From Candidatus Dormiibacterota bacterium (GTDB lineage: Bacteria > Chloroflexota > Dormibacteria > DASZGP01): 62,625 bases of DNA. The notes beneath the pieces were generated by a model. The model made no database searches, was not told the origin of the DNA, and saw only the letters and a program-made list of their open reading frames with translations. Positions 3,780 through 59,879 of this stretch are shown piece by piece. The translations under genes and the position numbers were made by a program. Location: the NCBI GenBank assembly GCA_049644325.1, contig JBARRR010000103.1:1-62625 (forward strand), written 5' to 3'. Position 1 is the stretch's first letter, and the number at the start of each line of letters is the position of its first letter.

Positions 3780-5006
3780 TTAGCCGGCGGTGACGGGGGC
3801 TGGGGTAGCGGCCACGTGCGCGTGGCCGTTGCGCTGGTCCAGCGGCAGCGAGCAGAACTCCTCGTAGTCGATCAGCTCGGTGATCGTGGGGTGCTCGCCG
3901 CAGACGGGGCAGTTCGGGTCCTTGCGCACCTTGAGGGTGCGGAACGACATGTCCAGCGCGTCGAAGACCAGCAGCTTGCCGACCAACGGCTCGCCGATGC
4001 CCAGGATCAGCTTGATGGCCTCGGTTGCCTGGATCGCGCCCAGGGTCCCGGGGAGGACGCCGAGGACGCCCGCCTCGGCACAGTTGGGCGCCAGGTCGCT
4101 GTCGGGGTCCGGGGGCTCGCCGAAGATGCAGCGGTAGCAGGGGCCGTGCTCGGCGTCCAGCACAGTGACCTGGCCGTCGAAACGGAAGATCGAGCCGTGA
4201 ACGATCTTCTTCTTCTTCCAGACGGCGGCGTCGTTGAGCAGGTAGCGGGTGGCGAAGTTGTCGGAGCCGTCGACGATGAGGTCGTAGGGCTCGATGATCT
4301 CGTAGACGTTCTCGGAGCTGAGCCGGGTGTTGTGCTCGACCACCCTGATGTCGGGGTTGAGGGCCCGCATGGCGATCGCCGCCGACTGCGTCTTGGGCAT
4401 CCCGATGCGGTCGGTGGTGTGGAGGATCTGGCGCTGCAGGTTGGACTCGTCGACGACATCGAAGTCGACGATGCCAATGGTGCCCACGCCGGCAGCGGCG
4501 AGGTACACACCCGCCGGTGATCCCAGGCCGCCGGCGCCGATCAGAAGGACCTTGGCGTCAAGCAGCTTGAGCTGGCCGGCCTCGCCCACGTTAGGCAGGA
4601 TGGTGTGGCGGCTGTAGCGCGCCAGCTGCTCGGGCTTGAGCGCCTGCGGCACGCTGAACTTGTAGCCGTGCTCCTTCCAGCCGTTGAAGCCGCCGGCCAT
4701 CGACTTGACGTCGGAGTAGCCCATCTGCTGCATCGCCTGCGCGCTCAGCACCGACCGGATACCCGAGGCGCAGTAGACAACCACGGGCTGGTCCTTGTCA
4801 GGGATCGTGCGCTCGATGCGCAGCTCCAACCATCCGCGGGGCAGGACGACGGCGCCGGGGATGATGCCCATGCCCGTCTCATCGGGCTCGCGGACGTCGA
4901 CCAGGACCGGCGGGTTGGCGCCCTTCAGCTGCTCGGCCACCTCGTCAGGGTTGGTTTCCTTGACGTCGCGGCGCGCCGCCGATAGAAAGTCGCGAAAAGT
5001 AGCCAT
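3780..5006 (-). CDS. Rhodanese-ThiF/MoeB family adenylyltransferase/sulfurtransferase, with the rhodanese domain N-terminal
   Basis: N-terminal rhodanese domain with active-site loop YCASGIRS. ThiF/MoeB Rossmann motif LLIGAGGLGSP. Zn cysteines CYRC...CPVC. Confidence 0.9.
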   Translation of the reverse strand: MATFRDFLSAARRDVKETNPDEVAEQLKGANPPVLVDVREPDETGMGIIPGAVVLPRGWLELRIERTIPDKDQPVVVYCASGIRSVLSAQAMQQMGYSDVKSMAGGFNGWKEHGYKFSVPQALKPEQLARYSRHTILPNVGEAGQLKLLDAKVLLIGAGGLGSPAGVYLAAAGVGTIGIVDFDVVDESNLQRQILHTTDRIGMPKTQSAAIAMRALNPDIRVVEHNTRLSSENVYEIIEPYDLIVDGSDNFATRYLLNDAAVWKKKKIVHGSIFRFDGQVTVLDAEHGPCYRCIFGEPPDPDSDLAPNCAEAGVLGVLPGTLGAIQATEAIKLILGIGEPLVGKLLVFDALDMSFRTLKVRKDPNCPVCGEHPTITELIDYEEFCSLPLDQRNGHAHVAATPAPVTAG

Positions 5007-5076
5007 CAGGTTCCAGTCTCCACGTTGTTTTGAACCAAAATCAATCTTGAGCTATTTCCGACCAAATCTATCAGAT

Positions 5077-20486: not shown

Positions 20487-21545
20487 CTACATCTCCAGCG
20501 GCGGGTAGTAGTTCTCAACGCCGGCCTTGCGGACGTCGCCCAGCCAATCGCCGTCGTACGCCTCGGTCGGACCCTGGTCGCGTCGCACCAGGCTCCAGGC
20601 CTGCCGCTTGTAGGTCCAGTTCTCGGGCTGGGCGCGGTGCGCCTCGCGGAAATGGGAAATGGCGTCTTCGGCAAAACCAGCACGCTGCAGGTGCTGGCCC
20701 ATTTCGAAGTGCGCTGCCGCCAGCGCCACCCCCGGCGGCCGCGGCCGTGAACGATCGATGACCTCGTCGGGCGTGAGCGCGAACCGGCTGCCGCTACCGC
20801 AGTCGACCCAGTCGCGTAGCGCGGCGACGTACCGATGTGGCTCGCTGTGAATCTTGCGTGACTCGACGACGACATCGCGCAGGTAGGGATCGATGCCCTC
20901 GGGCACGGGTGGCAGCTGGTCCACCGGGATGGCCGCGATCGACAGCTCCGGGAAAGCCGGCTCGGGCGGGCGCACGATCACGCCCTCCTCGTCAATCCAA
21001 ACACCGCTGGGGACGTTGACCACGCCCAGCAGCGTATCGAGTCGATGGGCCTGGTCGATGAGCGAGGGGTGCGTCTGGTTGGCGGCCTCGATGTACTTCT
21101 GAGTCTTCTCGAGCCCGAGGACGTCTAGGGCCACGGTGACGACCTCAAGCCCCTTGGGGTGGAGCTCCTCCCGCAAAGCCTGCCACCCGGGCAGGTCCCG
21201 CCGGCAGCCTCACCAGGATGCCCAGGCGAGGAGAAAGATCTTCTGACCCCTAAGGGTGCGGAAGTCGAAGTCGTCCCCCTGCCACGTGGGAAGCACAAGG
21301 TCGGGGAAGTCCGCGCTGGGCAGCACCCGGCCGGCGGTCTCGGGGCCCACAGCCCAGATCCCGTGCTTCTGCTGATAGACCAGCGGCATCCCCAGCCGCT
21401 CCGCCACCCAGGCCACGTCGACCTCGTCGCCCATGTCCCCGAGCGGAACGCAGACGTCGCCGCGGCAGGCCCCCTCGGGCTTGATCTCCCAGCCGGTCTC
21501 ACGTTGGAATGTCGCCCGGTCGGTGCGCAGCGCGCTGAGGATCAC
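20487..21545 (-). CDS. Thioredoxin-fold (TlpA/ResA-like) redoxin with an in-frame TGA at 21210-21212; probable selenocysteine, motif W-A-S-W-U-G-C
   Basis: Track ORFs 21210..21683(-) and 20487..21176(-) share one frame and are separated by a single TGA. Read-through gives LRGQKIFLLAWASW[TGA]GCRRDLPGWQALREELHPKGLEVVTVALD. I chose the GTG start at 21545 because it lies 8 nt after the AlkA stop. A GC hairpin sits directly after the TGA. Confidence 0.7.
21180..21212 (-). promoter_or_regulatory. UGA codon plus adjacent hairpin; candidate bacterial SECIS element
   Basis: mRNA reads UGA GG CUGCC GG CGGG ACCUG CCCG GGU GGCAG. The outer stem is 5 bp, the inner stem is 4 bp and the loop is 5 nt, starting 3 nt after UGA. 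GC-rich DNA forms such hairpins easily, so this is suggestive only. Confidence 0.45.
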
Positions 21546-21552
21546 GCCGTGG

Positions 21553-22317
21553 TCAGCGGTTTCGGGCGGACCGCGCGGCAGGCTTACGGCGAGCCTTCGT
21601 GCTCGGCTCGACGGCGCCCGCCCTTGCGGCGCGAGGCCTGCGCTCGGCCGGCGAATCGCCGCCGGGCAGCAGCATGTCGCCACGCATCAGGTGCACCGCC
21701 TGCCAGCAATACCAGGCAGCGATGCTGCGATAGGGCCGATAGATATCGCCCAGCGCCTGCAGCTCCTTCGGCTTGGGCATCTCCTGCAGGCTGTGGATCA
21801 GCCGATAGCCATTGCGAACGCCGAGGTCGTCGACGGGCCAGACGTCGAGACGCCGCAGCTCGAAGAGCAGGAACATTTGGGCGGTCCAGCGCCCGATGCC
21901 ACGAACACTGCTGAGACGCGCCACCAGCTCGTCGTCGGGCAGCATGTGGAGGTCGTGCAGCGGCACCGTGCCGTCAGTCGCTTTCTGGGCCAGGTCGCGA
22001 ACGGCGGCCAGCTTGGCGCCGCTGAGGCCCGCCGCCCGCAGCTTCTCAGGATCGGCCGCCAAGACTGCCTCCGGGGTGACCTTCCCGCCGAGCGCCTCAA
22101 CGAGCCGGCCGTGGATGGCGGCCGCCGCCCGGCCCGCCAGCTGTTGGTACATGATCGACCGCACCAGAGACCCGAAGTAGTCGCCAACCCCACCACGCAT
22201 CCGCACTGGACCGGCTTTGGCGATGAACGCCCGCAGTGCCGGGTCGCGCTTTGCCACCTCCTTGGCCGCGGCAACCTGCTCCGCAGTCGGCTCGGTCGGA
22301 TCGGGCACGGTTGCCAT
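21553..22317 (-). CDS. alkA: DNA-3-methyladenine glycosylase II / HhH-GPD family base-excision glycosylase
   Basis: HhH motif VRGIGRWTAQMFLLF and catalytic Asp region VWPVDDLGVRNG. Confidence 0.85.
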   Translation of the reverse strand: MATVPDPTEPTAEQVAAAKEVAKRDPALRAFIAKAGPVRMRGGVGDYFGSLVRSIMYQQLAGRAAAAIHGRLVEALGGKVTPEAVLAADPEKLRAAGLSGAKLAAVRDLAQKATDGTVPLHDLHMLPDDELVARLSSVRGIGRWTAQMFLLFELRRLDVWPVDDLGVRNGYRLIHSLQEMPKPKELQALGDIYRPYRSIAAWYCWQAVHLMRGDMLLPGGDSPAERRPRAARAGAVEPSTKARRKPAARSARNR

Positions 22318-22350: not shown

Positions 22351-23679
22351 CTACGCTTGGCTCACCTCGTACAGCCGCCACTGGCCGGGCACGCCTTTGA
22401 GTTCGTGCTCGCCCATGTCGACAAAATCGAGCGTGGAGCCGGCTACCAGGTCTTTGACCGTGCTGGAGACAAGCACCTGGCCGGGCCCCGCTGCCCCGGC
22501 GACACGGGCCGCTATGTGCACGGCGAGCCCACCGATGTCATCGCCTCTCAGCTCGCACTCCCCGGAATGGACGCCGGCACGGACCTCGAGGCCTATTGCT
22601 CGGGTCGCTTCCTGGATGGCCTGGGCACACTGGACGGCGCGGGCGGGCCCGTCGAACGTGGCCAGGACGCCGTCGCCGGTGTGCTTCAGGTGACGGCCCC
22701 GGAATCTTTCGATCTGGCGATTGGTCACGGTGTCGTGCTGGTCAAGCAGTGTTCGCCACGCGTCATCCCCAACCCGAGCGACGTGACCGGTCGAGCCGAC
22801 TATGTCGGTGAACATGACCGTTGAAAGCACTCGATCGGCCGGGCCCACGTGCCGCATGCCGGTGAGGAACTCCTCCACCTCCTCAACCACCGCGTCGGTG
22901 TCGCCGAACCATGGCCAGTGGTCGCCGCCGTCCAGTTCAACGTACTTGGCGCCCGGGATGTGCTCGGCGAGATAGCGTCCGTGGCCGACCTCCACCAGCG
23001 CGTCGTCTTTCCGGTGTATGACGAGGGTGGGAACTCGGATGGACGGGAGGACGGCGCGTATATCGATGGCCGAATTCGAGCGCATGTATATGTCCAGCTG
23101 AGCCGGACTGGCCGCCATCCGGTTGATCCGGGCAAACCACTGGCGAAACTCCTCGTCGCCGCTGCGGCTGGGCACCACCATGTCGTAGAACTCGCCGGTC
23201 GTCCCGGCCGCCTGCACGCCTGTGAAGAACATCTGGATCCCCTCTTCAGAGAATCCGTAGGGATAGTCAGGCGCGAGCTTGAGGCGCGCGAAGGAGGCGT
23301 AGGCGATCAGCCCGCTAACCCTGTCTGGATGAGTCGCGGCGAACAGCGCGGCGAGCGCTCCACCCTCGGAGTAGCCGAGTAGGGCCGCCCGGGTCGACCC
23401 GACGGCGTCCATCACGGCTCGGATGTCGTCCATGCGCTCGTCGACATGGGGCACGTGGGCCACCGGGTCCGAGAGGCCGGTCCCGCGTTTGTCGAAGATG
23501 ACGAGCCGGCTGAATTCCCCCAGTCGGCGTAGAAACGCCGCTGCCTGCGGCTCCTCCCATACCACCTCGACGTGCGACACCCACCCAGGCACGATTACGA
23601 GGTCGATCGGCCCCTCACCCACCACCTTGTAGGCAATGGAGACGTCCCCACTCTTCGCGTACCGTGTCTCCGGCTGCAT
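22351..23679 (-). CDS. Alpha/beta-hydrolase domain fused to a class III adenylate/guanylate cyclase domain
   Basis: N-terminal half is alpha/beta-hydrolase (LLGYSEGGALA nucleophile-elbow-like). C-terminal half is a cyclase: VMFTDIVGSTGHV...KHTGDGVLATFDGPARAV...AGVHSGECE...GLAVHIAARV. Confidence 0.88.
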   Translation of the reverse strand: MQPETRYAKSGDVSIAYKVVGEGPIDLVIVPGWVSHVEVVWEEPQAAAFLRRLGEFSRLVIFDKRGTGLSDPVAHVPHVDERMDDIRAVMDAVGSTRAALLGYSEGGALAALFAATHPDRVSGLIAYASFARLKLAPDYPYGFSEEGIQMFFTGVQAAGTTGEFYDMVVPSRSGDEEFRQWFARINRMAASPAQLDIYMRSNSAIDIRAVLPSIRVPTLVIHRKDDALVEVGHGRYLAEHIPGAKYVELDGGDHWPWFGDTDAVVEEVEEFLTGMRHVGPADRVLSTVMFTDIVGSTGHVARVGDDAWRTLLDQHDTVTNRQIERFRGRHLKHTGDGVLATFDGPARAVQCAQAIQEATRAIGLEVRAGVHSGECELRGDDIGGLAVHIAARVAGAAGPGQVLVSSTVKDLVAGSTLDFVDMGEHELKGVPGQWRLYEVSQA

Positions 23680-23720
23680 CCCTTTAACTGCAGCCTAACC
23701 CACCGCGCTAGGCTGAATCT

Positions 23721-32770: not shown

Positions 32771-32798
32771 CGTGGCCCTGGCGATGTAGCATCGCCGT

Positions 32799-32900
32799 GA
32801 TCCGAAGGGGAGCGACCGGTTTCAGCGCCGGGAGCTGAGAGGCTGCCTCGCAGCGACCCTTTGAACCTGGACCAGGCAATGCTGGCGTAGGAATCGGAAA
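32799..32900 (+). ncRNA. TPP (THI-box) riboswitch
   Basis: Conserved cores are present: GGGGAGC...GCUGAGAGG...ACCCUUUGAACCUGGACCAGGCAAUGCUGGCGUAGGAA. P1 pairs UCCGA (32801-05) with UCGGA (32894-98). It ends 2-3 nt before the cytX ATG, so the P1 3' strand covers the GGAA/RBS region. The downstream genes are thiamine-related. Confidence 0.85.
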
Positions 32901-32901
32901 C

Positions 32902-34344
32902 ATGAGCAAAGCCGTCAAGAACCCGGCCGAGGCGCTGCCGCTGCCGGCATCCGCCAATGACGAATTCCTCCGCGTGGAGCTGCGCGGACTCGAACCGGTA
33001 CCTGACGAGACCCGGCGTGGGCACCCGCGCGAGCTCTTTTTCATCTGGGCCGCGGCGCTGGCCGACTTCTTCTCCTTCCTCGCCGGGGCGCTCCTGATCA
33101 ACCTCGGCCTGGGCGTCTGGGATGCCATCCTGGTCCTGGTGCTGGGCGCTGTCGCCGGCGGCATCCTCATCGGTCCCCTCAGCGTCACCGGTGTCCGTAC
33201 CGGGGTCCCCCAGATCATGTACTCCCGGATCGCCTTCGGCCGCCGTGGCGCCGCCATTGGTGGCCTGCTGACGATGGTCATCGCGGTCGGCTGGTTCAGC
33301 TACGACTGTGCCATCGCCGTCTACACCGCCAAGGCGCTGCCTGTCTTCGGCGCGGGCCCGCCGAGCTGGGTGGTGGGCCTGATGCTGGTGGCGATGGTGC
33401 TGGGCTGCATCCTGGTGGCGTTCTTCGGCCACCGCACCATCACCATCGTGCAGACGGTGCAGGCGCCGCTGTTTATCACGCTATGCGCAGTGGTGGCGGT
33501 GGTGTTGGCGCCCAAGTTCAACGTCGGCCTGGCCAGCGCCCTCGACCCCGCGACGCACCTCTCGGTGGCCCTGCTCGGCTTCACCGCGACCTTCGCGCTG
33601 ATCATCTCTTGGGCGACGTACGCCGGCGACTACTCCCGCTACCTGCCGCGCAAAACCAGCGCCATCGCCGTCAGCATCTGGGCCGGCGCCGGCGGCGTGG
33701 TCACGCTTGTCATCTGCGGCGCGCTGGGCGCCCTGGTGCAAACCATCGACCCCACCCAGCAGAACCCCGCCTTGCTGATCGTCCCCAACCTGCCCACGGC
33801 ACTGGCCTGGGTGTTCGTCGCCTTCATCGTGATTGCCGAGATGAGCAGCAACTACCTCAACATCTACACCGCAGCCCTCAGCGGGCTGGCCATCGGCATT
33901 CCCCTCAAGCGCTGGTGGGCGGTGGCGATTTTCGGGATGGTCGGCGGCGCCATCGCCCTGGTGATCGTGTTCCTCGGCGACTTCCTCAAGATCTACCTCA
34001 ACTTCCTGACGGTGACGTATGTCTGGTTTCCGGCGTGGTGCATTGTTGTGTTGGTCGACTTCTGGCGACGGCGGGGGACGCTTAACGTGGACGAGATCAC
34101 CAGTCGGCCGGCGTCGTGGCGGGACTCGATACGGTGGCCGGCGCTGACCGCGTTCGCCGTCGGGACCGCCGCAACGCTGCTTTTCTACAGCAATCAACCC
34201 TTCTTCCAGGGATGGCTGGCGAGGGCCTTCTTCCACGACCAGCCAGCCGATGTCAGCAGCGTCGTCGGTGTCATCACCAGCCTGGTGTTGTTCGTGGTCC
34301 TGCTGCGGCTGAGCCGCAGCCCGCGCCCGGCGGCAGCGGGATGA
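32902..34344 (+). CDS. cytX: NCS1-family permease, probable hydroxymethylpyrimidine (HMP) transporter
   Basis: 12-TM cytosine/purine/thiamine-precursor permease pattern. Sits behind a TPP riboswitch and is ATGA-coupled to thiD. Confidence 0.8.
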
Positions 34345-35198
34345 CCGTACCCGTCGCGGCCACCATCGCCGGCAGCGATTCCGGCGGCGGCGCCGGGATC
34401 CAGGCCGACCTCAAGACATTTGCCGCCCTCGGCGTCTATGGAGCCAGCGCCATCGTCGCCCTCACGGCGCAGAACACCGTGGGTGTCAGGGGGGTGCAGA
34501 CCGCCTCGTTGGAGATGGTGGCTCAGCAGATCGACGCCATCGCCGACGACCTCTCACCCAACGCCTGGAAGACGGGGATGCTGGCCAGCGCCGACATCAT
34601 CGACATCGTCGTCGCACGGCTGCGTCACCACCGGGCGCGGAACCTGGTTGTCGACCCCGTGATGGTGTCGAAGTCGGGGGACCGGCTGCTGGACGTCGAG
34701 GCGGTGGGCGCCTTGGTACAGCGGCTGCTGCCGCTGGCACTGGTGGTAACCCCCAACCTGCCCGAAGCCACCGCCATGACCGGCCGGACGATCGACTCCC
34801 CCCGCGACGCGCGTCGCGCCGCCCGCGAGCTGGCCGAGCTGGGGCCGCGGCTGGTGGTGGTCAAGGGCGGACACGCCGGCACCGACCCCGTGGTGGACGT
34901 CGTCTACGACGCCAACAGCAAGGAGTGGACGGAGCTCCGCAACGAGCGGGTCGCAGGCGACAACACGCATGGCACTGGGTGCACTTTCAGCGCCGCAATC
35001 GCCGCCAACCTGGCGCGCGGCGCAGACCCGGCGGAGGCCGTACACCGCGCGCGTCAGTACCTGCAGGCGGCGCTACGCTGGGCCCCAAGCATAGGGTCGG
35101 GCCATGGACCGCTCGGCCACATGGGGCCGCAAGGGTATGCCCCCGCCGAACGTTACATGATGACGGACGATGCTACCTCCGGTAGAGTGGATAGCTGA
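34341..35198 (+). CDS. thiD: Hydroxymethylpyrimidine/phosphomethylpyrimidine kinase
   Basis: [26 protein letters not shown] and [11 protein letters not shown]...[14 protein letters not shown] trimmed the start to the ATG at 34341. Confidence 0.9.
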
Positions 35199-37619: not shown

Positions 37620-39437
37620 CTAGCCCACCGCCTCCGCGTCGCCGGTGCGCTGGCGTTCCGCCTCGAGCAGGATCTCGGCGATCTCCGGGCGGGTGAACTC
37701 GATGGGCAGGTCCTCGCCCGCGCGCAGCATCTCCCGCACCTTGGTGCCGCTGAGGATGACGCGGTCGTCGCCGCCGTGCGGGCACGTCCGGCTGGTGGCC
37801 ATCTGGCCGCAGGCCCTGCAGTAGAAGGAGTGCTCGAACTTGAGTAACGCAATGCCGATCTCCGCGGGCGCGAACTGGTCGAAGATCTCCTGCGCGTCGT
37901 AGCTGCCGTAGAACGAGCCCACCCCGGCGTGGTCACGGCCGACGATGAAGTGGCTGCAGCCGTAGTTCTTGCGGACCAGGGCGTGGAAGATGGCCTCGCG
38001 CGGCCCGGCGTAGCGCATCGACGCGGGGAAGACGGATAGGACGACGCGGTCCGGCGGGTAGTGGTGCTGCATCAGCGCCTGGTAGCAGCGCATTCGGACC
38101 GCGGCCGGGATGTCGTCGTCCTTGGTCTCGCCCACCAGTGGATGGAGGAGGAGGCCGTCGACCTGCTCCAGCGCCACCTTCTGCAAGTACTCGTGAGCGC
38201 GGTGCACGGGATTGCGCGTCTGGAAGCCGACCACCGTTCGCCAGCCCTTGTCGGCGAAGACGGCGCGGGTCTGCATCGGCGTGAGGCGGACCTCGGCGAA
38301 GGGCGCCTTGGGCAGGGCGAAGACCTCGACCGGGCCCGCTACCGCGAGGCCCGGCTGGGCCAGCACCCGGGCGACGCCGGGGTGGGACTCGTCCGACGTT
38401 CCGTAGACGTCGGCCGCGACGCGGTTGCGGTCATAGCCGTACGTCTCGCTCACCGTCAACACCGCCAGTGACTTGCCCCCCGTCCGCAACGCCACCCGCT
38501 GCCCCGCGCCCAGCTCGCGGGCCTGGGCCTCGTCCACCGGCAGGATGACGGGCAGGCTCCAGACCATCCCGTCCGAGAGCCGCATCCGCTCCGCCACCGA
38601 AAGCATGTCGGCCTCGCGCATGAAGCCGGTCAGGGGGCTGAGGCCGCCGCCGGCGAGCAGCTCGAGGTCGCTCACGGCCCAGGCGTCGAGCTCGATCGAC
38701 GGCAGCGCCTGCGCCTCCTGGCTGAGCTCGCGGCCGCGCTCCTTGGACGCCATCCGGACCTGGAGGACGCCGCCGTGGGGCATGACGCCGGTGCCAGCCA
38801 CGTCAGCCTGGTTGTGCTCCTCGCCGAAGCGATGGCCGTGGGACAGGTGCTCCACGTGCACGTGGGCGGGGACGTCGTCACGGTCGAGATAGCCGCGGGC
38901 CTGCAGCGCCGCCAGCACGTCGGCCACCGACTCACCCACCGTTTGGGTCTCGCTGCTGACGACCACCTCGGGATGCAGTGGCGCCTCGTATGGATCGCTG
39001 ACGCCGGTGAAGTTCTTTATCTCTCCCGACAGCGCCTTGGCGTAGAGGCCCTTGACGTCGCGGCGGCTGAGCTCCTCGATGGAGCAGTCGACGTGGACCT
39101 CGACGAAGTCGCCGATGCGGGCCCGGACCTCGTCGCGGATATCGCGGTAGGGCGATATGGCAGCCACCAGGACAAAGGCGCCGTGCCGGGTCAGCAGCTG
39201 CGCAACGAACCCGATGCGGCGGATGTTCTCGTCGCGGTCCTCCTTGCTGAAGCCCAGGCCCTTGCTCAGGTTCTCGCGGATGACGTCGCCGTCGAGGATC
39301 TCGACGCGCTTGCCACGCAGCTCCAGCTCGCTGGCCAGGGCGGTGGAGATGGTCGACTTGCCGGCGCCGCTGAGGCCGGTCAGCCAGATGGTGACCCCGC
39401 GCTGCGTCTCATGCGACGTCTCCTTGATGACGCTCAC
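37620..39437 (-). CDS. Bifunctional adenylylsulfate kinase (N-terminal) / sulfate adenylyltransferase (C-terminal)
   Basis: APS kinase P-loop [16 protein letters not shown] sulfurylase motifs [15 protein letters not shown] and [12 protein letters not shown]. Confidence 0.9.
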
Positions 39438-41275
39438 TTCTGTCCCGCCGCTCGCGCCGCCCGCTGGGCCCGGGCGTAGGCGGTGTCGTCATGCTCGCCG
39501 GCGTCGCGGACGGCATGGGCCGAGCCGCCCTCAGATGTTCCCGCCTCGACCAGGGCGCCGGGCGGCATCGCCTCCCTGGCGAAGGCCTGCAGAGACTCGT
39601 CATCGAGCTGGTTGAGGTAATGGCTGAAGTCCTGCTCCGGCAGGCGGCGCTGGAGGTAAAGCCGCAGCAACGACTCGATGTAGTCGGGCATCTTCTCGGC
39701 GCGGACGCGGGCTCCCTTGGCGATGCGGGCGAAGTGCCGCTCCTCGCCGAGGTGGCCGCCGAGGTAGACCTGGAAGACCTCGGTCGGTACCCCCGCGATG
39801 GTCACGATCGAGCCCATGAACCCCATGTCCGCGATCTGGAAGCGGGCGCAGGCATTGGGGCAGCCATTGATGTTGATGCGGCAGTAGTCGTCGAAGTCGG
39901 GAAGCCGCTTCTCCAGCTCGTCGACGATGGTCGCGGCCCGGCCCTTGGTCTCGGTCACCGCCAGCTTGCAGAACTCGATGCCGGTGCAGGCCATGGTGCT
40001 CCGCCGGAAGCTCGAGCTGCGCACCTGGAGTCCCAGCGCGGCCAGTTCGCCGACGGCGGCCTCGACCTTGGCCTCAGGGATGTCGAGGATGACCATCTTC
40101 TGCTGGGTTGTGGTGCGGACGCGGCCCTTGCCGTAGCGCCGCGAGATCGCGGCGATGCCACTCATCTGCTCGGCATCGGTACGGCCCGCCACCAGCGGGA
40201 AGCCGACGTACATGTTGCCGTCGGCCTGGCGGTGAATGCCGGCATGGTCGCGATGAGAGGCGTGCGTTTCCGGCGCAGGCGGCCCATCGACCAGTCGACG
40301 CTTGAGGTACTTCTTCTCCAGGACCTCACGGAACTTCTCCACGCCCCAGTCCGCGACCAGGAACTTGAGCCGGGCCCGGTTGCGGGTCCGCCGGTAGCCG
40401 TAGTCGCGGAAGCAGGTGGTGATGGCGACGCACAGCTCGACCAGCTCGTCAGGCGCGACGAAGGCGCCCAGCGACTGGGCCATGTGCGGCGTTGTCGAGA
40501 GCCCGCCACCGACCAGCACATCGAAGCCGACCCGGCCGTCGACCCGGTGGGCCACGGCGCCGATGTCGTTGACGTCCTCGTGGCCGCAGCGGTCGGCGCA
40601 GCCGGTGATCGAGATCTTGTACTTGCGCGGCAGGTTGGAGAACTCCTTGGTCCCCGTCAGCCGGTGGCCGACCGCGAGCACGTAGGGCGTGGCGTCGATG
40701 TACTCGGCGGCGTCGACCCCGGCGGTCGGGCAGCCGAGCACGTTGCGGGTGACGTCGCCGCACGTCTGCAGCGTCGACAGCCCGACCGCGGAGATGGTCG
40801 CCCAGGCCTCGGGGATGTCCTCGATGTGGAGGTTGTGGAACTGGAAGTTCTGCCGGTCGGTGACGTCGATCACGCCCTTGCCCCAGCGGCGGGCGAGCTC
40901 GGCGCAGGCATCCAGCTGCTCGGCGGTCAGCTGGCCACCCGGGATGCGGATGCGCATCATGAACATCTTGTCTTCCTCGGGCCGCTGGGTGTAGAGCCCG
41001 TACCAGCGGAAGCGGCCGCTGAGGTCGGCGGGATCGATGCTGTCCCACCCTTCCTTGGCGTACTGGTGGATGATCCGCTCGAAAACGTCGAGGCCGTCCT
41101 GGTTGCGCTTGTTGGCCTCCTGGGGGGTGAGCGGCTCCATGTAGCCGAGAGCCCACTGGCCCTGGGCCCGCTTGGGTCGCGGGATCTCCAGGGGCGAGTC
41201 CTGGAGGAGGGAATCCTCCTCGCTCTCGGCAAGCGTGCCGCCGGCCTCGGGGTGCTCGCCGTTGGTCTCGCTCAT
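39434..41275 (-). CDS. Ferredoxin-dependent sulfite reductase (NirA/SirA-type siroheme hemoprotein)
   Basis: Nitrite/sulfite reductase ferredoxin-like half-domains. Cluster cysteines [12 protein letters not shown] and NGCPNACAR. The start ATG at 41275 is ATGA-coupled to cysH. Confidence 0.9.
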
Positions 41276-42081
41276 GTGTCCGACGCCTCCGCGGCCGGCG
41301 CGCTGTCGGCCCGCGTCAACACCCTGCTGTTGCCGTCGGCGTCGACCACGGTCTCGTAGTGGATGCCGCACTCGGTATCGCCCTGTTCCCACCACCACCG
41401 GCCGGCGCGCAGTTCCTCGCCCGGCTCGATCGCCCGGGTGCAGGGGTCGCAGCCGATGCTGGTGTAGCCCTTCCGGTAGAGCGAGTTGCGGGGGACGTTG
41501 TACGTCTCGATGTGCTCCAGGACCTGCTCGTGGGTCCAGTTCGCCAGCGGGTTGATCTTGACGATGCCGCCATGCTGCTCGTCGAGCTCGACGACTTCCA
41601 CGTTGGCGCGGCTGGCGTTCTGGTCGCGCCGCAGCCCCGTGATCCAGGCGTCGAGGGTTTTCAGCCTGCGGTTGAGGGGCAGTACCTTGCGCACCTCGCA
41701 GCAGCTGAGGCGCAGCTCGGTGGACTTGTACATCAGGTTGATGCCGTGCTCGCTGACCAGCTCGGACACCTCCTGGGCGTCGGGGTAGAGGATCTCGATC
41801 TTGACCCCGAAGCGATCGTTGATCTCGTCCATCAGGTCGTAGGTGGCCGCCGGCAAGCGCCCAGTGTCGATGGTGAAGACGTTGACCGCCCAGTCGATGC
41901 GGACCGCCATGTCGAGCACCGCCATGCCCTCGTCCTGGAGGGAGGTGCAGATCGAAATGCGGTTACGCGGGAAAGTGGTCAGGCCCCAGACAAGCACCTC
42001 CTGGGGGGAGGCGTCCTTCAGTTGCTCGGCAGCCTCCGCGACGAGGGTGGCGTTGTCCGACAGCGGCTGGGGCATCGACAC
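41272..42081 (-). CDS. cysH: Adenylylsulfate/phosphoadenylylsulfate reductase, Fe-S-type CysH
   Basis: PAPS-reductase fold. The CC...CxxC cysteines (SCCEVRK, IGCDPCT) are typical of APS-preferring CysH. C-terminal ECGIH. Confidence 0.9.
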   Translation of the reverse strand: MSMPQPLSDNATLVAEAAEQLKDASPQEVLVWGLTTFPRNRISICTSLQDEGMAVLDMAVRIDWAVNVFTIDTGRLPAATYDLMDEINDRFGVKIEILYPDAQEVSELVSEHGINLMYKSTELRLSCCEVRKVLPLNRRLKTLDAWITGLRRDQNASRANVEVVELDEQHGGIVKINPLANWTHEQVLEHIETYNVPRNSLYRKGYTSIGCDPCTRAIEPGEELRAGRWWWEQGDTECGIHYETVVDADGNSRVLTRADSAPAAEASDT

Positions 42082-42159
42082 GCGGGGTTCACACTCCTAC
42101 CTCTGGGGGCTGACGACGACAATCCGACAATTCCGACCAGAAAGCTAGGATTATGCACG

Positions 42160-42945: not shown

Positions 42946-43045
42946 AAGGCCGCCCCGCCGCTGCTGGTGAAGAACGGCTAAGACGCTGGCAGCCCGAGAA
43001 TCGCGGGCTACTATAGGCCCCTGATGACTGCACTGGGCGGGGCCG

Positions 43046-45121
43046 TTGCCTGAGCTAGCCGGGATCGAGTTCGTCCAGACCATCGGCCGCGGCGCGATGG
43101 GCGCGGTCTACCTGGCCCGGCAGACGGCCCTCAACCGGTACGTGGCCGCCAAGCAGATCCTGGGCGCCTGGAACGGCGACCCTGAGATGCTGGCCCGCTT
43201 CCAGCGGGAGGCGCGCGCCCTGGCGCAGATGAACCACCCCAACGTCGTTGGCATCTACGACCTGACGACCGCGGGCAACGACCTCTTCATGATCATGGAG
43301 TACGTCCGCGGCCCCTCGCTACGTCAGCTGATGGACAAGCAGCAGCTGACGGTCTCGCAGGCGCTGCGCACCCTGGGCGACATCTCGGCCGCGCTCGAAT
43401 ACGCCAGCAAGCTCGGCGTCGTTCACCGCGACCTCAAGCCCGGCAACGTCTTCGTCACCGTCGCCGGCAGCTCCAAGCTGGGCGACTTCGGCCTGGTCAA
43501 GATGGTGTCGGCGCAGTCGAACTTCCAGACCCAGGCCGGGACCATCCTTGGCACCCCCGCCTACATGTCGCCGGAGCAGGCCGAGGGCAAGGCCGACATC
43601 GACCAGCGCACGGACGTCTACTCGCTGGCGGTGATGGCATATGAGCTCCTCACCGGCAGGCTGCCGTTCCCCTCCATCCCCGGCAACATCATGGCCAGCC
43701 TCGACGCCCACATCTCGCAGCCGCCGCCGAAGCCAACAGACATCGTCCCGGGCTTCCCCAAGCGCGTCGAGGCGGCGCTGCTCGAGGGCCTGGCCAAGGA
43801 CCCGAAGAAGAGACCCGCCTCCGCGGGCCAGCTGTGGCAGAAGATACAATCCGCCGCCGCCAAGGATTGGCCGGGCTGGGAAAAGGACTCCGACCTGGCC
43901 GCCATGGCCTTGGCCGCGGCTCCCCCCGCCCCCCCGCCACTGCCGGCGCCAGGAACGCCCTCGGTGGCGCCCGCCGCCGCCGCGGAGACCGCCATGAGCC
44001 AGCCGCCAGGGGCGTACGGCGCTCCGACTGATCCGCCGCCGATGGCGCCACCGCCGCCGTCGACTGGCACATCGCCACCCCTCTCGTCGATCCCGGCGTC
44101 GATGCCCGTGATGGCTCCCCCGGCAGCGCCCCCTATGGCACCTCCCCCGGCCAGCACGGGGACACCGCCAACCCCGGGACCTGCGCCCGACGAAACGATG
44201 GTCAGACCCGCCGCCGCCGCCGACGAGACCATGGTGCGACCATCGCTCGCGGACGAGACCGCCGTGCAACCACCGCTGCCAGACGAGACCATGGTTCGGC
44301 CTCCGCTGGTGGACGAGACCGTGGTCCAACCACCGCTGCCAGACGAGACCATGGTTCGGCCTCCGCTGGCCGACGAAACCATGGTCCATCCGGTGCCCCC
44401 GGCCGGCGGCGCAAGCCTGGACGAAACCGTCGCCCTGCCCAATGCCCCCGCGGCACCCGGCGGTCCGGGGGCAACCCCGCCGCCCCCGGCACCGGGCGCT
44501 ACACCGTCAGCGCCGACCTTCGCCCCCCTGCCGCCGACGTCGACCCCTGCATCGATGGCGCCTCCGCTGGCGACAACCGCACCACCTGTCGCTCCCATGT
44601 CGGCGCCGCCGGCCGGCCCGGCCAGCGGCTCATGGGCTGCGCCCCAGGTGGAGACGCCGGTCTACAAGCCGCCGCCGACCAAGAGCCGCCGCCGCGGGGG
44701 TTTCGGCCGTTTCCTACTCATCCTGGTGCTGCTCCTGATCATCGTGGTTGCCGGCGCCGGGGCATTCCTGTTCCTCACCGGCGGCAACCTCTTCGGCCCT
44801 GGCACGCCGCTGTCCGTTTCGTCGGTGAACACCACCGTCAACCCAAGCTCGGGCAAGTGCCCCAGCTCCAAATACGTCTTCAGCGGCAAGGTCCACACCA
44901 ACGGCGCCGGCGGCGACATCACCTACCAGTGGGTCAAGCCGGACGGCACCGCCACAGATCCAGCGGTTGCGACCATCAAGAAGGGCGACACCGACGCGGT
45001 CGCCACCCTGGAGTTCACCTTCCAGGGCAACGGCAGCGCCGAGGGTGACGCTGTACTCCGCGTGCTCAAACCGACAAACTTGAGCTCGCAAGCCGCGCAC
45101 ATCACATACACCTGCCCCTGA
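43046..45121 (+). CDS. Hanks-type Ser/Thr protein kinase: cytoplasmic kinase, Pro-rich repeat linker, one TM, ~115-aa extracellular domain
   Basis: G-loop GRGAMGAVY, VAAK Lys, HRDLKPGN, DFG and GTPAYMSPE. TM segment FLLILVLLLIIVVAGAGAFLFL. The C-terminal domain has a Cys pair and is not PASTA-like. TTG start. Confidence 0.9.
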   Translation: MPELAGIEFVQTIGRGAMGAVYLARQTALNRYVAAKQILGAWNGDPEMLARFQREARALAQMNHPNVVGIYDLTTAGNDLFMIMEYVRGPSLRQLMDKQQLTVSQALRTLGDISAALEYASKLGVVHRDLKPGNVFVTVAGSSKLGDFGLVKMVSAQSNFQTQAGTILGTPAYMSPEQAEGKADIDQRTDVYSLAVMAYELLTGRLPFPSIPGNIMASLDAHISQPPPKPTDIVPGFPKRVEAALLEGLAKDPKKRPASAGQLWQKIQSAAAKDWPGWEKDSDLAAMALAAAPPAPPPLPAPGTPSVAPAAAAETAMSQPPGAYGAPTDPPPMAPPPPSTGTSPPLSSIPASMPVMAPPAAPPMAPPPASTGTPPTPGPAPDETMVRPAAAADETMVRPSLADETAVQPPLPDETMVRPPLVDETVVQPPLPDETMVRPPLADETMVHPVPPAGGASLDETVALPNAPAAPGGPGATPPPPAPGATPSAPTFAPLPPTSTPASMAPPLATTAPPVAPMSAPPAGPASGSWAAPQVETPVYKPPPTKSRRRGGFGRFLLILVLLLIIVVAGAGAFLFLTGGNLFGPGTPLSVSSVNTTVNPSSGKCPSSKYVFSGKVHTNGAGGDITYQWVKPDGTATDPAVATIKKGDTDAVATLEFTFQGNGSAEGDAVLRVLKPTNLSSQAAHITYTCP
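44189..44395 (+). repeat. Seven tandem ~10-aa coding repeats of the form x-DET(M/A/V)V(R/Q/H)P-PL inside the kinase linker
   Basis: DETMVRPAAAA DETMVRPSLA DETAVQPPLP DETMVRPPLV DETVVQPPLP DETMVRPPLA DETMVHP. At DNA level, AGACGAGACCATGGTTCGGCCTCCGCTGG occurs identically at 44281 and 44341, giving a 60-nt period. Confidence 0.85.
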
Positions 45122-53911: not shown

Positions 53912-54955
53912 ATGGCTAACGGACCCGCCTTCAAGTACGGAGACCAGGTCTTCCCGCTCAACAAGGTGACCAACACGATCGGCCGCAAGGACCGGATCAC
54001 CAACATGGTGCCGGACGTCGACCTGGCGACCGTCGACGACGAGCGCGCGGTGTCCCGCAAACACGCAGAGGCCACCTACCAGTCGGGCAAGATCCTGCTG
54101 CGTGATGTCGGCTCGACCAACGGCACCACCATCAATGGCCAGGCGCTCCAGCTCCAAGTCGAAGGCGAGCTGGCGGACGGCGACCAGGTCTCGCTCGGCG
54201 GCTTTGAGGTCGTCTACGCAGCGTCGGCGGAATGGCCTGCCGGCGTGGAGGCGCAGTGGCCGGCGGAGCAGCCGGTGGACCTCGAGACCCAGGTGTACCA
54301 CCCCGAGGAGACAGCCGTGATGCGGCCCGACGAGACCGCGGTGTTCGCGCAAGGCGCCCTGGATCAGCCGGCGGAAGCAGCCCCCGCGGAGAGCGAGCTG
54401 GCCGGGGCAGCGGATGTCTACACGCCCGCGCCGGAGGCTGAGGCGCCCGCCGAAGAGGGTGCCGCCGAGCCCACGCCCGCGGCCGAGGCCGAACCCGAGG
54501 CTGCTGCAGCCGAGGCAGCGCCGGCGGTCGAGGAGGCAGCACCGGTGGCGAAGACGCCGGCGGTCGAGGCGGCCCCCGCGCCCGAAGAGGCCCCGGTGGC
54601 CGCGGCGTCGGCAGAGGAGTCGATCACCTTCGTCCCCTGCACCAACCACCCGCACCTGCCAGCGGTCGGGCTCTGCCCTGGCTGCCTCGACCCCTTCTGC
54701 ATCGATTGCCTGCCCGAGCGCCCGGAGCAGCCGCTGGCGTGCAACCGCTGCGCCGGGATCCTGATGCGACTGGCGGCGGCCACAGGAGGGACGCCGTGGG
54801 CGGCCGTGGCGGCGGCGCCGGTGGCGACTGCGCCAGAGGCCGCCGGCTTCCCACCCCCGTCCGCGGGCGTGGCGCGCAACTACAACCCGGAGCCCCCGGC
54901 GCAGCCGACGACCCCGGCGCCCCCGGAGGAGAAAAAGAAGAAGTGGCCCTTCTGA
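53912..54955 (+). CDS. FHA domain protein with an Ala/Glu/Pro-rich linker and a B-box-like Cys/His zinc module
   Basis: FHA core TIGRKDRI...VSRKHAEATYQSGKILLRDVGSTNGTTING. C-terminal CTNHPHLPAVGLCPGCLDPFCIDCLPERPEQPLACNRC, i.e. C-x2-H-x7-C-x2-C-x4-C-x2-C-x10-C-x2-C. Confidence 0.85.
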   Translation: MANGPAFKYGDQVFPLNKVTNTIGRKDRITNMVPDVDLATVDDERAVSRKHAEATYQSGKILLRDVGSTNGTTINGQALQLQVEGELADGDQVSLGGFEVVYAASAEWPAGVEAQWPAEQPVDLETQVYHPEETAVMRPDETAVFAQGALDQPAEAAPAESELAGAADVYTPAPEAEAPAEEGAAEPTPAAEAEPEAAAAEAAPAVEEAAPVAKTPAVEAAPAPEEAPVAAASAEESITFVPCTNHPHLPAVGLCPGCLDPFCIDCLPERPEQPLACNRCAGILMRLAAATGGTPWAAVAAAPVATAPEAAGFPPPSAGVARNYNPEPPAQPTTPAPPEEKKKKWPF

Positions 54956-59517: not shown

Positions 59518-59552
59518 CCTTGCTGCAGCCCGAAAAAAGGAGGAATTGAAGC

Positions 59553-59879
59553 ATGGGAACCGAGCAGTACCACGAGCCGCCAGGCGAGCTGTCGCCGGAG
59601 GTCCGTACCTTCGCCCGCGTGATCGCCTCGCTCCAGGAGGAGGCCGAGGCCATCGGCTGGTACCAGCAGCGGATCTCGATCGAGCCGGAGTCTGAGGCCC
59701 GGGCGATCATGCGGAACGCCCAGCAGGAGGAGTTCAAGCACTTCGCCATGGCCCTGGAGTACCTCGTCCGGCGCAAGCCGAAATGGCGGGTCGCGCTCCA
59801 GGATGTCCTCTTCAAGGAAGGCGACATCGTCGAGCACGGCGAGCAGGCCGAGGAGGACGAGGAGAAGGTCCCCGACTGA
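59553..59879 (+). CDS. Encapsulated-ferritin-like (EncFtn family) ferritin-like protein
   Basis: Strong RBS AAGGAGG. HEP...SLQEEAEAIGWYQQRI...NAQQEEFKHFAMALEYLVRRKPKW...LFKEGDI matches my recollection of EncFtn (HEP...EELEAVDWYDQR...EEKEHAAMTLEWLRR...W...LFTEGPI), including the Glu/Glu/His iron ligand positions. Confidence 0.75.
   Translation: MGTEQYHEPPGELSPEVRTFARVIASLQEEAEAIGWYQQRISIEPESEARAIMRNAQQEEFKHFAMALEYLVRRKPKWRVALQDVLFKEGDIVEHGEQAEEDEEKVPD

Follow-up and report, generated by a model that had tools for sequence, protein, structure and literature searches.

We describe here a minus-strand stretch at 20487..21545 of a 62,625-nt contig of Candidatus Dormiibacterota bacterium (GenBank assembly GCA_049644325.1, contig JBARRR010000103.1; the 62,625 nt as a whole are called the window below). 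This stretch very probably constitutes one gene for a protein of the WAxxUGC family, in which an in-frame UGA codon is decoded as selenocysteine (Sec). A first-pass annotation of the window had proposed a single selenoprotein gene cut in two by the open reading frame (ORF) caller, and this central claim is upheld by the match of the product to a curated protein family, by the occurrence of TGA at the same position in 133 loci, and by a covarying hairpin of the selenocysteine insertion sequence (SECIS) type. Our confidence is high, and it is held short of certainty because the Sec machinery is unseen. Within a bacterial selenoprotein family that is on record the gene is an unexceptional member, and in this sense the finding is already known.

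One reading frame interrupted by a single UGA codon

The gene and its UGA codon are as follows.

20487..21545, minus strand: predicted complete selenoprotein coding sequence, with a GTG start at 21545, 352 codons including Sec112, and a TAG stop at 20487-20489
21210..21212, minus strand: UGA predicted to be read as Sec, residue 112, in W-A-S-W-U-G-C (from the sequence, its translation and the homologous codons)

The mechanical ORF list divides this region into two entries, namely 21210..21683(-), of 157 aa with the C-terminus ...LLAWASW, and 20487..21176(-), of 229 aa with a TTG start and the N-terminus MREELHPKGL.... Both lie in one frame and the sole interruption between them is the TGA at 21210-21212, as had been claimed at the first pass and as is borne out by the single-frame translation of 20487-21683(-), which contains one internal stop only (...KIFLLAWASW*GCRRDLPGWQALREELHPKGLEVV...). 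The codons around it on the minus strand read GCC TGG GCA TCC TGG TGA GGC TGC CGG CGG GAC CTG CCC GGG TGG CAG, with the W-A-S-W-[TGA]-G-C motif spanning 21224-21204(-). The upstream gene, which codes for an HhH-GPD glycosylase, ends at 21553, and the N-termini of homologues, MILxxL, align with VILSAL of the window protein; we therefore place the true start at the GTG at 21545, from which 352 codons are counted, in agreement with the read-through product of ~352 aa that had been anticipated. In the window the gene follows the glycosylase gene after 7 nt, an arrangement that recurs in close relatives only.

In this DNA TGA otherwise serves as a regular stop, being the terminator of 18 of the 36 Pfam-supported genes whose stop codon falls inside the window, so that any read-through at 21210-21212 must be a matter of local recoding. 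A global reassignment of UGA (genetic codes 4 or 25) is ruled out by the same count.

Membership of the WAxxUGC family

With U entered as C, the predicted protein reaches 519.6 bits on the NCBIfam profile NF041054, whose cut-off is 300 (E = 4.4e-156), and the match runs end to end, with residues 2-352 of the protein on positions 2-354 of the 354 in the profile. NF041054 is a curated NCBIfam equivalog, 'WAxxUGC_long', described as 'ResA-like WAxxUGC motif-containing protein'. The family name that had been put forward at the first pass is therefore real, and the protein passes its cut-off over the full length. The W-A-S-W-U-G-C motif, the three-domain length of ~350 residues, the UGA-encoded Sec and the abundance of Cys homologues are all common to the family and to the window protein, which is a typical member with no difference of substance.

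Three names for the family are already on record, NF041054 and 'Prx-like (UGC-containing)' among them. Under the latter name, with pfam00578 and the motif UGC, the Global Ocean Sampling (GOS) survey reported 46 Sec sequences and 855 Cys homologues (PMC2398784). The probable equivalence of NF041054 and the published names rests on their common motif and domain assignments (pfam00578/cd02966, UGC), and was drawn without sequence comparison to the example accession of the papers. A full-text literature search returned no paper under 'WAxxUGC', the family having been published under other names, and none of the papers found characterises any of its members.

The codon at the motif in homologous loci

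A scan of one genome per species gave 80 loci, to which a metagenome scan seeded with the Cys form was added, and the counts that follow refer to the 158 related loci in which the motif position was located. Comparison of homologues at the TGA column, which the first-pass annotation had suggested, gives Sec (TGA) in 133 of these loci, Cys (TGC/TGT) in 24 and TAG in one. Among the one-genome-per-species loci, 78 of 80 have TGA, the two exceptions being Patulibacter minatonensis, with TGC, and a metagenome-assembled genome (MAG) of Blastococcus, with TAG. The best match in the species scan is a Candidatus Dormibacterota MAG, with 91% identity. Matches found with tblastn extend through the stop over residues 1-352 and come from MAGs of several phyla: Dormibacterota, Chloroflexota (Dehalococcoidia, Ktedonobacterales, Thermomicrobiales and Limnocylindria), Actinomycetota, Myxococcota/'Deltaproteobacteria', Burkholderiales and Spirochaetales. 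From these comparisons, the position of the UGA at 21210-21212 at the first redox Cys of the Cys homologues is well supported.

Of the 120 best matches among database proteins, 110 are contiguous, full-length Cys forms (WASWCGC) of 344-360 residues, and the closest relatives (75-90% identity) are present only as 229-residue C-terminal fragments, split like the window gene (P0001, P0002, P0016, P0024 and P0064 in public gene calls). The under-representation of Sec forms in protein databases we attribute solely to splitting by gene callers. Soil metagenome contigs retrieved with the Cys-form query (L082-L161) still hold 53 TGA loci against 23 Cys loci, which indicates that Sec forms of the WAxxUGC family are very common in soil metagenomes.

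The single TAG locus (L053:10334-10336, contig JAOPUS010000278.1 of a Blastococcus sp. MAG) has an intact SECIS hairpin (GACCTGCCCGGGTGGCAGG). Geodermatophilaceae, Blastococcus included, possess a CUA-anticodon tRNA-Sec and use UAG as their Sec codon (PMC5330540), so that the codon at the motif follows the Sec codon of the lineage. As a separate observation, two loci from Acidimicrobiia/Actinomycetota MAGs (L023:2134-2136 and L024:10300-10302) carry W-A-S-W-U-H-C, with His in place of the otherwise invariant Gly and with the SECIS unchanged.

A conserved hairpin downstream of the UGA

Two RNA structures after the UGA were compared.

21179..21195, minus strand: predicted bacterial SECIS hairpin, 17 nt, positions +15..+31, with a 6-bp stem (CCUGCC/GGCAGG) and a 5-nt loop (CGGGU)
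21180..21207, minus strand: longer hairpin of the first-pass annotation, formed with an upstream CUGCC copy plus CGGG/CCCG; an alternative fold with the same 3' arm, not conserved

Conservation is striking in the nucleotides that follow the TGA (CTGCC-NGKNT-GGCAG). In the window, the arms of the shorter stem lie at 21195-21190 and 21184-21179 and its loop at 21189-21185, starting 20 nt past the UGA. Both structures were tested on an alignment of 77 distinct TGA loci (A1), in which 99.4% of the cells of the +15..+31 hairpin are paired and 28 cells have both sides changed; none of 500 shuffles reached this pairing, and slid controls were 33-75% paired. Pair +15/+31 is CG in 52 loci, UA in 9, GC in 8 and UG in 3, pair +16/+30 includes one UA (TTG...CAA), and positions 1 and 4 of the loop (pair +21/+24) covary (CG 67, AU 6, GC 4). 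This loop pair is reminiscent of fdhF, in which G23-U24 is flanked by a G-C pair, and of the Moorella SECIS with its GGUCU loop. The six stem pairs are retained in full in 117 of 120 distinct TGA loci, as against 5 of 16 distinct Cys loci, where CTC, TCN and CGC codons stand in place of CTG, CCC and CAG/CGG; the Fisher p of ~3e-10 for this difference is overstated, since the 16 Cys sequences come from ~4 lineages and are phylogenetically clumped. In the window and its nearest relatives (L001 and L081) the hairpin is intact. On these alignments, a conserved 17-nt hairpin may be considered well supported, its compensatory changes being confined to loci that have a stop codon at the motif.

The hairpin also agrees with what is published on bacterial SECIS elements. 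The bSECIS model asks for a loop of 3-9 nt, a stem of 4-16 bp, a distance of 16-37 nt from UGA to loop and an energy <= -7.5 kcal/mol, with G in the first two loop positions and then G or U (PMC13188914), and the window hairpin conforms to all of these rules (5-nt loop CGGGU, 6 bp, 20 nt, -10.4 kcal/mol). Its length equals that of the minimal functional E. coli SECIS element, 17 nt (PMC11431864). Compared with the bacterial consensus of the E. coli fdhF type, it likewise lies within the coding region directly after the UGA, but it has neither the bulged U nor the long lower stem, and its stem is encoded by a conserved L-P-x-W-Q peptide, so that RNA and protein constraints overlap.

The first-pass annotation had assigned the SECIS to the longer, 28-nt hairpin, a claim that stands only in part. 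The complementarity is present (CUGCC/GGCAG plus CGGG/CCCG, loop ACCUG) and forms the minimum free energy fold of an isolated 32-nt stretch; at -17.3 kcal/mol (z = -0.8 against shuffles) it is not unusual for its G+C content. As a SECIS, however, this candidate was rejected, as it is 72.4% paired over the 77 TGA loci against 72.6% in shuffles, with 49.7% in the inner helix and no covariation, and the SECIS is instead placed at 21195..21179. During UGA decoding, the 5' arm of the 28-nt hairpin (3-7 nt past the UGA) would sit inside the ribosome.

Points against Sec decoding and alternative explanations

A number of observations weigh against the interpretation given above. Within the 62.6-kb window, ARAGORN found no tRNA, and hence no tRNA-Sec, and Pfam scans of ~47 window ORFs found no SelA, SelB-wing or SelD-type (AIRS) domain; nor was a tRNA-Sec found in the flanks of the 81 related loci scanned (L001-L081). 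No SECIS family of Rfam matches the hairpin, the matches being at chance level only (E >= 0.14). Its folding energy is unremarkable (z = -1.7 for a 21-nt stretch and -0.03 for the 66 nt after the UGA), and in isolation the 28-nt hairpin is the more stable of the two (-17.3 against -10.4 kcal/mol). The L-P-x-W-Q codons of the stem are at the same time preferred codons of a high-G+C genome, and thus part of the stem's conservation comes from coding. To this must be added the phylogenetic clumping of the Cys-form control (16 distinct sequences, ~4 lineages), and the fact that the catalytic chemistry and the cytoplasmic location discussed below are matters that we infer. As folding energy is uninformative at 68% G+C, covariation was used as the evidence for the SECIS instead.

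The alternative that survives best, improbable as it is, holds that the UGA is read through without Sec, either by near-cognate decoding as Trp, Cys or Arg, or as a leaky codon kept after a recent loss of the Sec machinery. That no such machinery was seen in the window would be in keeping with this idea, as would a literature search that found no paper linking Dormibacterota with selenocysteine. Nevertheless, the SECIS is intact in the window, in L001 and in L081 and decays once the codon is Cys, TAG stands at the motif where the lineage uses UAG for Sec, and the code is not globally reassigned, with TGA ending 18 of 36 window genes.

A pseudogene, that is, a Cys-form redoxin whose TGC had become the nonsense codon TGA by mutation, or an apparent one caused by an error in sequencing, is scarcely credible, even though TGA is one base from TGC/TGT, Cys forms are as common as noted above (110 of 120 top protein matches) and the window shows no Sec machinery. 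The same TGA occurs in 133 loci of several phyla, no further stops or frameshifts are found across the 352 codons, and the compensatory changes in the downstream hairpin are confined to TGA loci. Relative to L001, dN/dS (the ratio of nonsynonymous to synonymous substitution rates) is 0.037/0.32 before the TGA and 0.053/0.43 after it (about 0.11 and 0.12), which indicates that both halves are under the same purifying selection. The pseudogene reading is effectively refuted already by these comparative data; the first-pass annotation had argued against it from the preserved frame and motif.

Two separate genes, one for a 111-residue protein up to the TGA and one for a 229-residue protein from the TTG at 21176, can be given hardly any weight: public gene calls of the closest relatives do consist of exactly such 229-residue fragments, but the split would cut the active site of the thioredoxin fold and would leave as non-coding the 11 codons from the TGA to the caller's TTG (GCRRDLPGWQA), which show dN = 0 against both L001 and L081 and hold the invariant resolving Cys, whereas the Cys homologues are contiguous (344-360 residues) and modelled as one compact fold, and the NCBIfam profile requires both halves. 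Together, the TGA in 133 loci, the contiguous Cys forms and the dN/dS values on both sides exclude, for practical purposes, the pseudogene and the two-gene readings.

Architecture of the predicted selenoprotein

Read as one selenoprotein, the product would consist of three domains.

21321..21545, minus strand: N-terminal domain of ~75 residues, mostly beta, family-specific, with C-x4-C (from invariant columns, an AlphaFold2 model of a homologue, and hydropathy)
20970..21311, minus strand: thioredoxin-fold (redoxin) domain, residues 79-192, with U112-G-C114 and with N-V-P at the cis-proline position (from Pfam, the family profile and Foldseek)
20490..20936, minus strand: C-terminal all-helical domain, residues ~204-352, with the motifs NWTYKRQAW and ENYYP (from Pfam, the family profile and the AlphaFold2 model of the homologue)
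20619-20720, minus strand: single TPR-like repeat, residues 276-309 (TPR_2, E = 0.004, below the Pfam cut-off)

On residues 79-192, Pfam reports AhpC-TSA with 45.6 bits and Redoxin with 34.6 bits, and the family profile matches the solved thioredoxin domains of ResA, TlpA and DsbE. In the HMMER alignment, W-A-S-W-C-G-.-C-R falls on W-A-T-W-C-P-P-C-R of 3kcm, so that Sec corresponds to the nucleophilic Cys at the start of CxxC and the spacer is one residue shorter. The first-pass annotation had likewise set the TGA on the first redox Cys of a TlpA/ResA-like fold, with a U-G-C pair, and the profile alignment to the CPPC of 3kcm supports this.

An AlphaFold2 model was made for the 60%-identical Cys homologue P0003, standing in for the window protein. 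It shows one compact fold (pLDDT 93.5, pTM 0.90), in which a small beta-rich N-terminal domain (strands 20-22, 25-28 and 31-33; pLDDT 85-97 across residues 1-80) is followed by the thioredoxin fold and by a helical C-terminal domain, with helices between residues 204 and 333. Comparison of this model with the PDB by Foldseek matched the thioredoxin domain alone, the middle domain being close to ResA (2f9s/1st9; TM-score on the target ~0.75, rmsd 1.8 A), and returned no structural relative for the N- or C-terminal domain.

Invariant residues are found in all three domains (alignment A2): G18, W19, G25, C27 and C32 in the N-terminal one; W108, A109, W111, U/C112, G113 and C114 at the active site, together with N177, V178 and P179; and P307, N309, W310, T311, Y312, R314 and W317 in the C-terminal one. 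The Cys-containing N-terminal domain (C27, C32) and the TPR-like C-terminal part (residues 276-309) that had been remarked on earlier are thus both present, and in the family profile residues 275-309 align to consensus TPR proteins. No membrane segment or hydrophobic leader was found by hydropathy calculation (highest 19-residue Kyte-Doolittle mean 1.03; average of the first 30 residues -0.6), and hence the protein, unlike ResA, TlpA and CcmG, is probably cytoplasmic.

Relationship to ResA, TlpA, DsbE and the peroxiredoxins

The window protein has the same thioredoxin-fold subtype as ResA, TlpA and CcmG (DsbE), which belong to cytochrome c and copper-centre maturation, and has in common with them the F/W-W-A-x-W lead-in and the conserved proline loop (N-V-P). 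It differs from these families in its U-G-C, with one spacer residue where they have C-x-x-C, and, on the hydropathy calculation, in having no membrane anchor or signal peptide; with respect to ResA and TlpA, the N-terminal C-x4-C domain and the C-terminal helical domain are extras. Scores against the curated profiles remain below the cut-offs in every case (ResA 48.8 against 170, TlpA 41.1 against 230, StoA 40.3 against 210, DsbE 19.6 against 123).

As regards the peroxiredoxins (AhpC/TSA), the PF00578 domain does pass its gathering score (45.6 against 26), and the Joint Genome Institute (JGI) annotates Cys forms as 'peroxiredoxin'. However, the protein lacks the peroxidatic P-x-x-x-T/S-x-x-C(U) motif, the residues before Sec being F-L-L-A-W-A-S-W, with L at -7 and A at -3 (the W-A-S-W columns recur in nearly all homologues), and its resolving Cys is two residues from Sec, whereas that of peroxiredoxins is distant. 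As the defining features of each group were looked for and are not present, we place the window protein neither in ResA/TlpA/DsbE nor among the typical peroxiredoxins, although its mode of action would be that of a thioredoxin-fold redoxin with a selenenylsulfide U-x-C centre.

Proposed decoding and redox mechanism

For the gene as a selenoprotein gene, a model can be proposed by analogy with the established bacterial mechanism. When the UGA reaches the ribosome, the hairpin at 21195..21179 would lie just outside the mRNA channel, and it would recruit SelB-GTP-Sec-tRNA(Sec), so that selenocysteine would be inserted and termination avoided. In the folded protein, Sec112 would attack as the nucleophile and Cys114 would act in resolution, with a selenenylsulfide formed over the one-residue spacer, in a reaction presumably of the thiol/disulfide or peroxide type. 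The invariant pair Cys27/Cys32 might provide a second redox or metal site.

Two readings can be put forward tentatively, with much less assurance than Sec decoding itself: that the protein is a cytoplasmic three-domain selenoenzyme whose N-terminal C-x4-C forms a second centre, and that Dormibacterota, as a phylum represented chiefly by MAGs, use selenocysteine. Such a selenoenzyme would not be a periplasmic reductase of the ResA/TlpA type, its C-x4-C redox or metal centre may feed the U-G-C site, and its substrate would be one new to the redoxins. Neither the cytoplasmic selenoenzyme nor the use of Sec by Dormibacterota would alter the kind of system described here.

Gene neighbourhood and other features of the window

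Clustering of the ORFs within +/-5 kb of 82 loci revealed no conserved partner in more than 15 of them; the neighbours that recur (acyl-CoA dehydrogenase, acyl-CoA synthetase and enoyl-CoA hydratase) belong to large paralogous families. Two genes upstream of the selenoprotein gene, on the same strand and abutting the HhH-GPD gene (21553-22317), lies a gene (22351-23694(-)) in which an alpha/beta-hydrolase (residues 32-261) is fused to an adenylate/guanylate cyclase catalytic domain (292-442).

Elsewhere in the window, 3780-5051(-) codes for a ThiF-family adenylyltransferase with an N-terminal rhodanese domain (residues 35-127) followed by ThiF (146-383); in MoeB/MoeZ-type proteins the rhodanese domain is usually C-terminal. 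MoeB is among the families with Sec forms, and no in-frame TGA was seen in this gene. A thiamine pyrophosphate (TPP) riboswitch at 32796-32910(+) (RF00059, 61.8 bits against a gathering score of 54.3) stands directly upstream of the genes for a cytosine/purine/thiamine-type permease (32839-34344) and a ThiD-like phosphomethylpyrimidine kinase (34086-35198), and the whole looks like a thiamine-precursor salvage operon. A sulfate-assimilation cluster at 37620-42096(-) comprises a fused adenosine 5'-phosphosulfate (APS) kinase/ATP sulfurylase (37620-39488), a sulfite/nitrite reductase (39434-41962) and a gene of the 3'-phosphoadenosine 5'-phosphosulfate (PAPS) reductase family (41272-42096), the stop-to-stop frame of which overlaps that of the sulfite/nitrite reductase. 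The segment 45084-52652(+) holds a Tad/Flp-type pilus set, with an AAA_31 ParA-like ATPase, a CpaF-type T2SSE ATPase, a TadE-like protein and several ORFs lacking Pfam matches, preceded by a Ser/Thr kinase (43028-45121) and followed by an FHA-domain protein (53912-54955). Finally, 59550-59879(+) is an EncFtn-like (encapsulated ferritin) gene of ~109 residues, followed by a gene for a DEAD-box helicase; no encapsulin shell gene was recognised adjoining it.

Significance

The most immediate consequence of this work is a correction of annotation: what appears as a 229-residue 'hypothetical protein' and an orphan N-terminal fragment is really one 352-residue selenoprotein. The finding itself opens no new question, and a characterised member of the WAxxUGC family would be useful. 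The Blastococcus TAG locus would add the family to the UAG-encoded selenoproteins of Geodermatophilaceae. All together, the comparative data yield a cleanly defined SECIS for the WAxxUGC family, and two natural controls, namely the decay of the hairpin in Cys forms and the presence of TAG in a lineage with UAG-encoded Sec, make Sec decoding hard to doubt.

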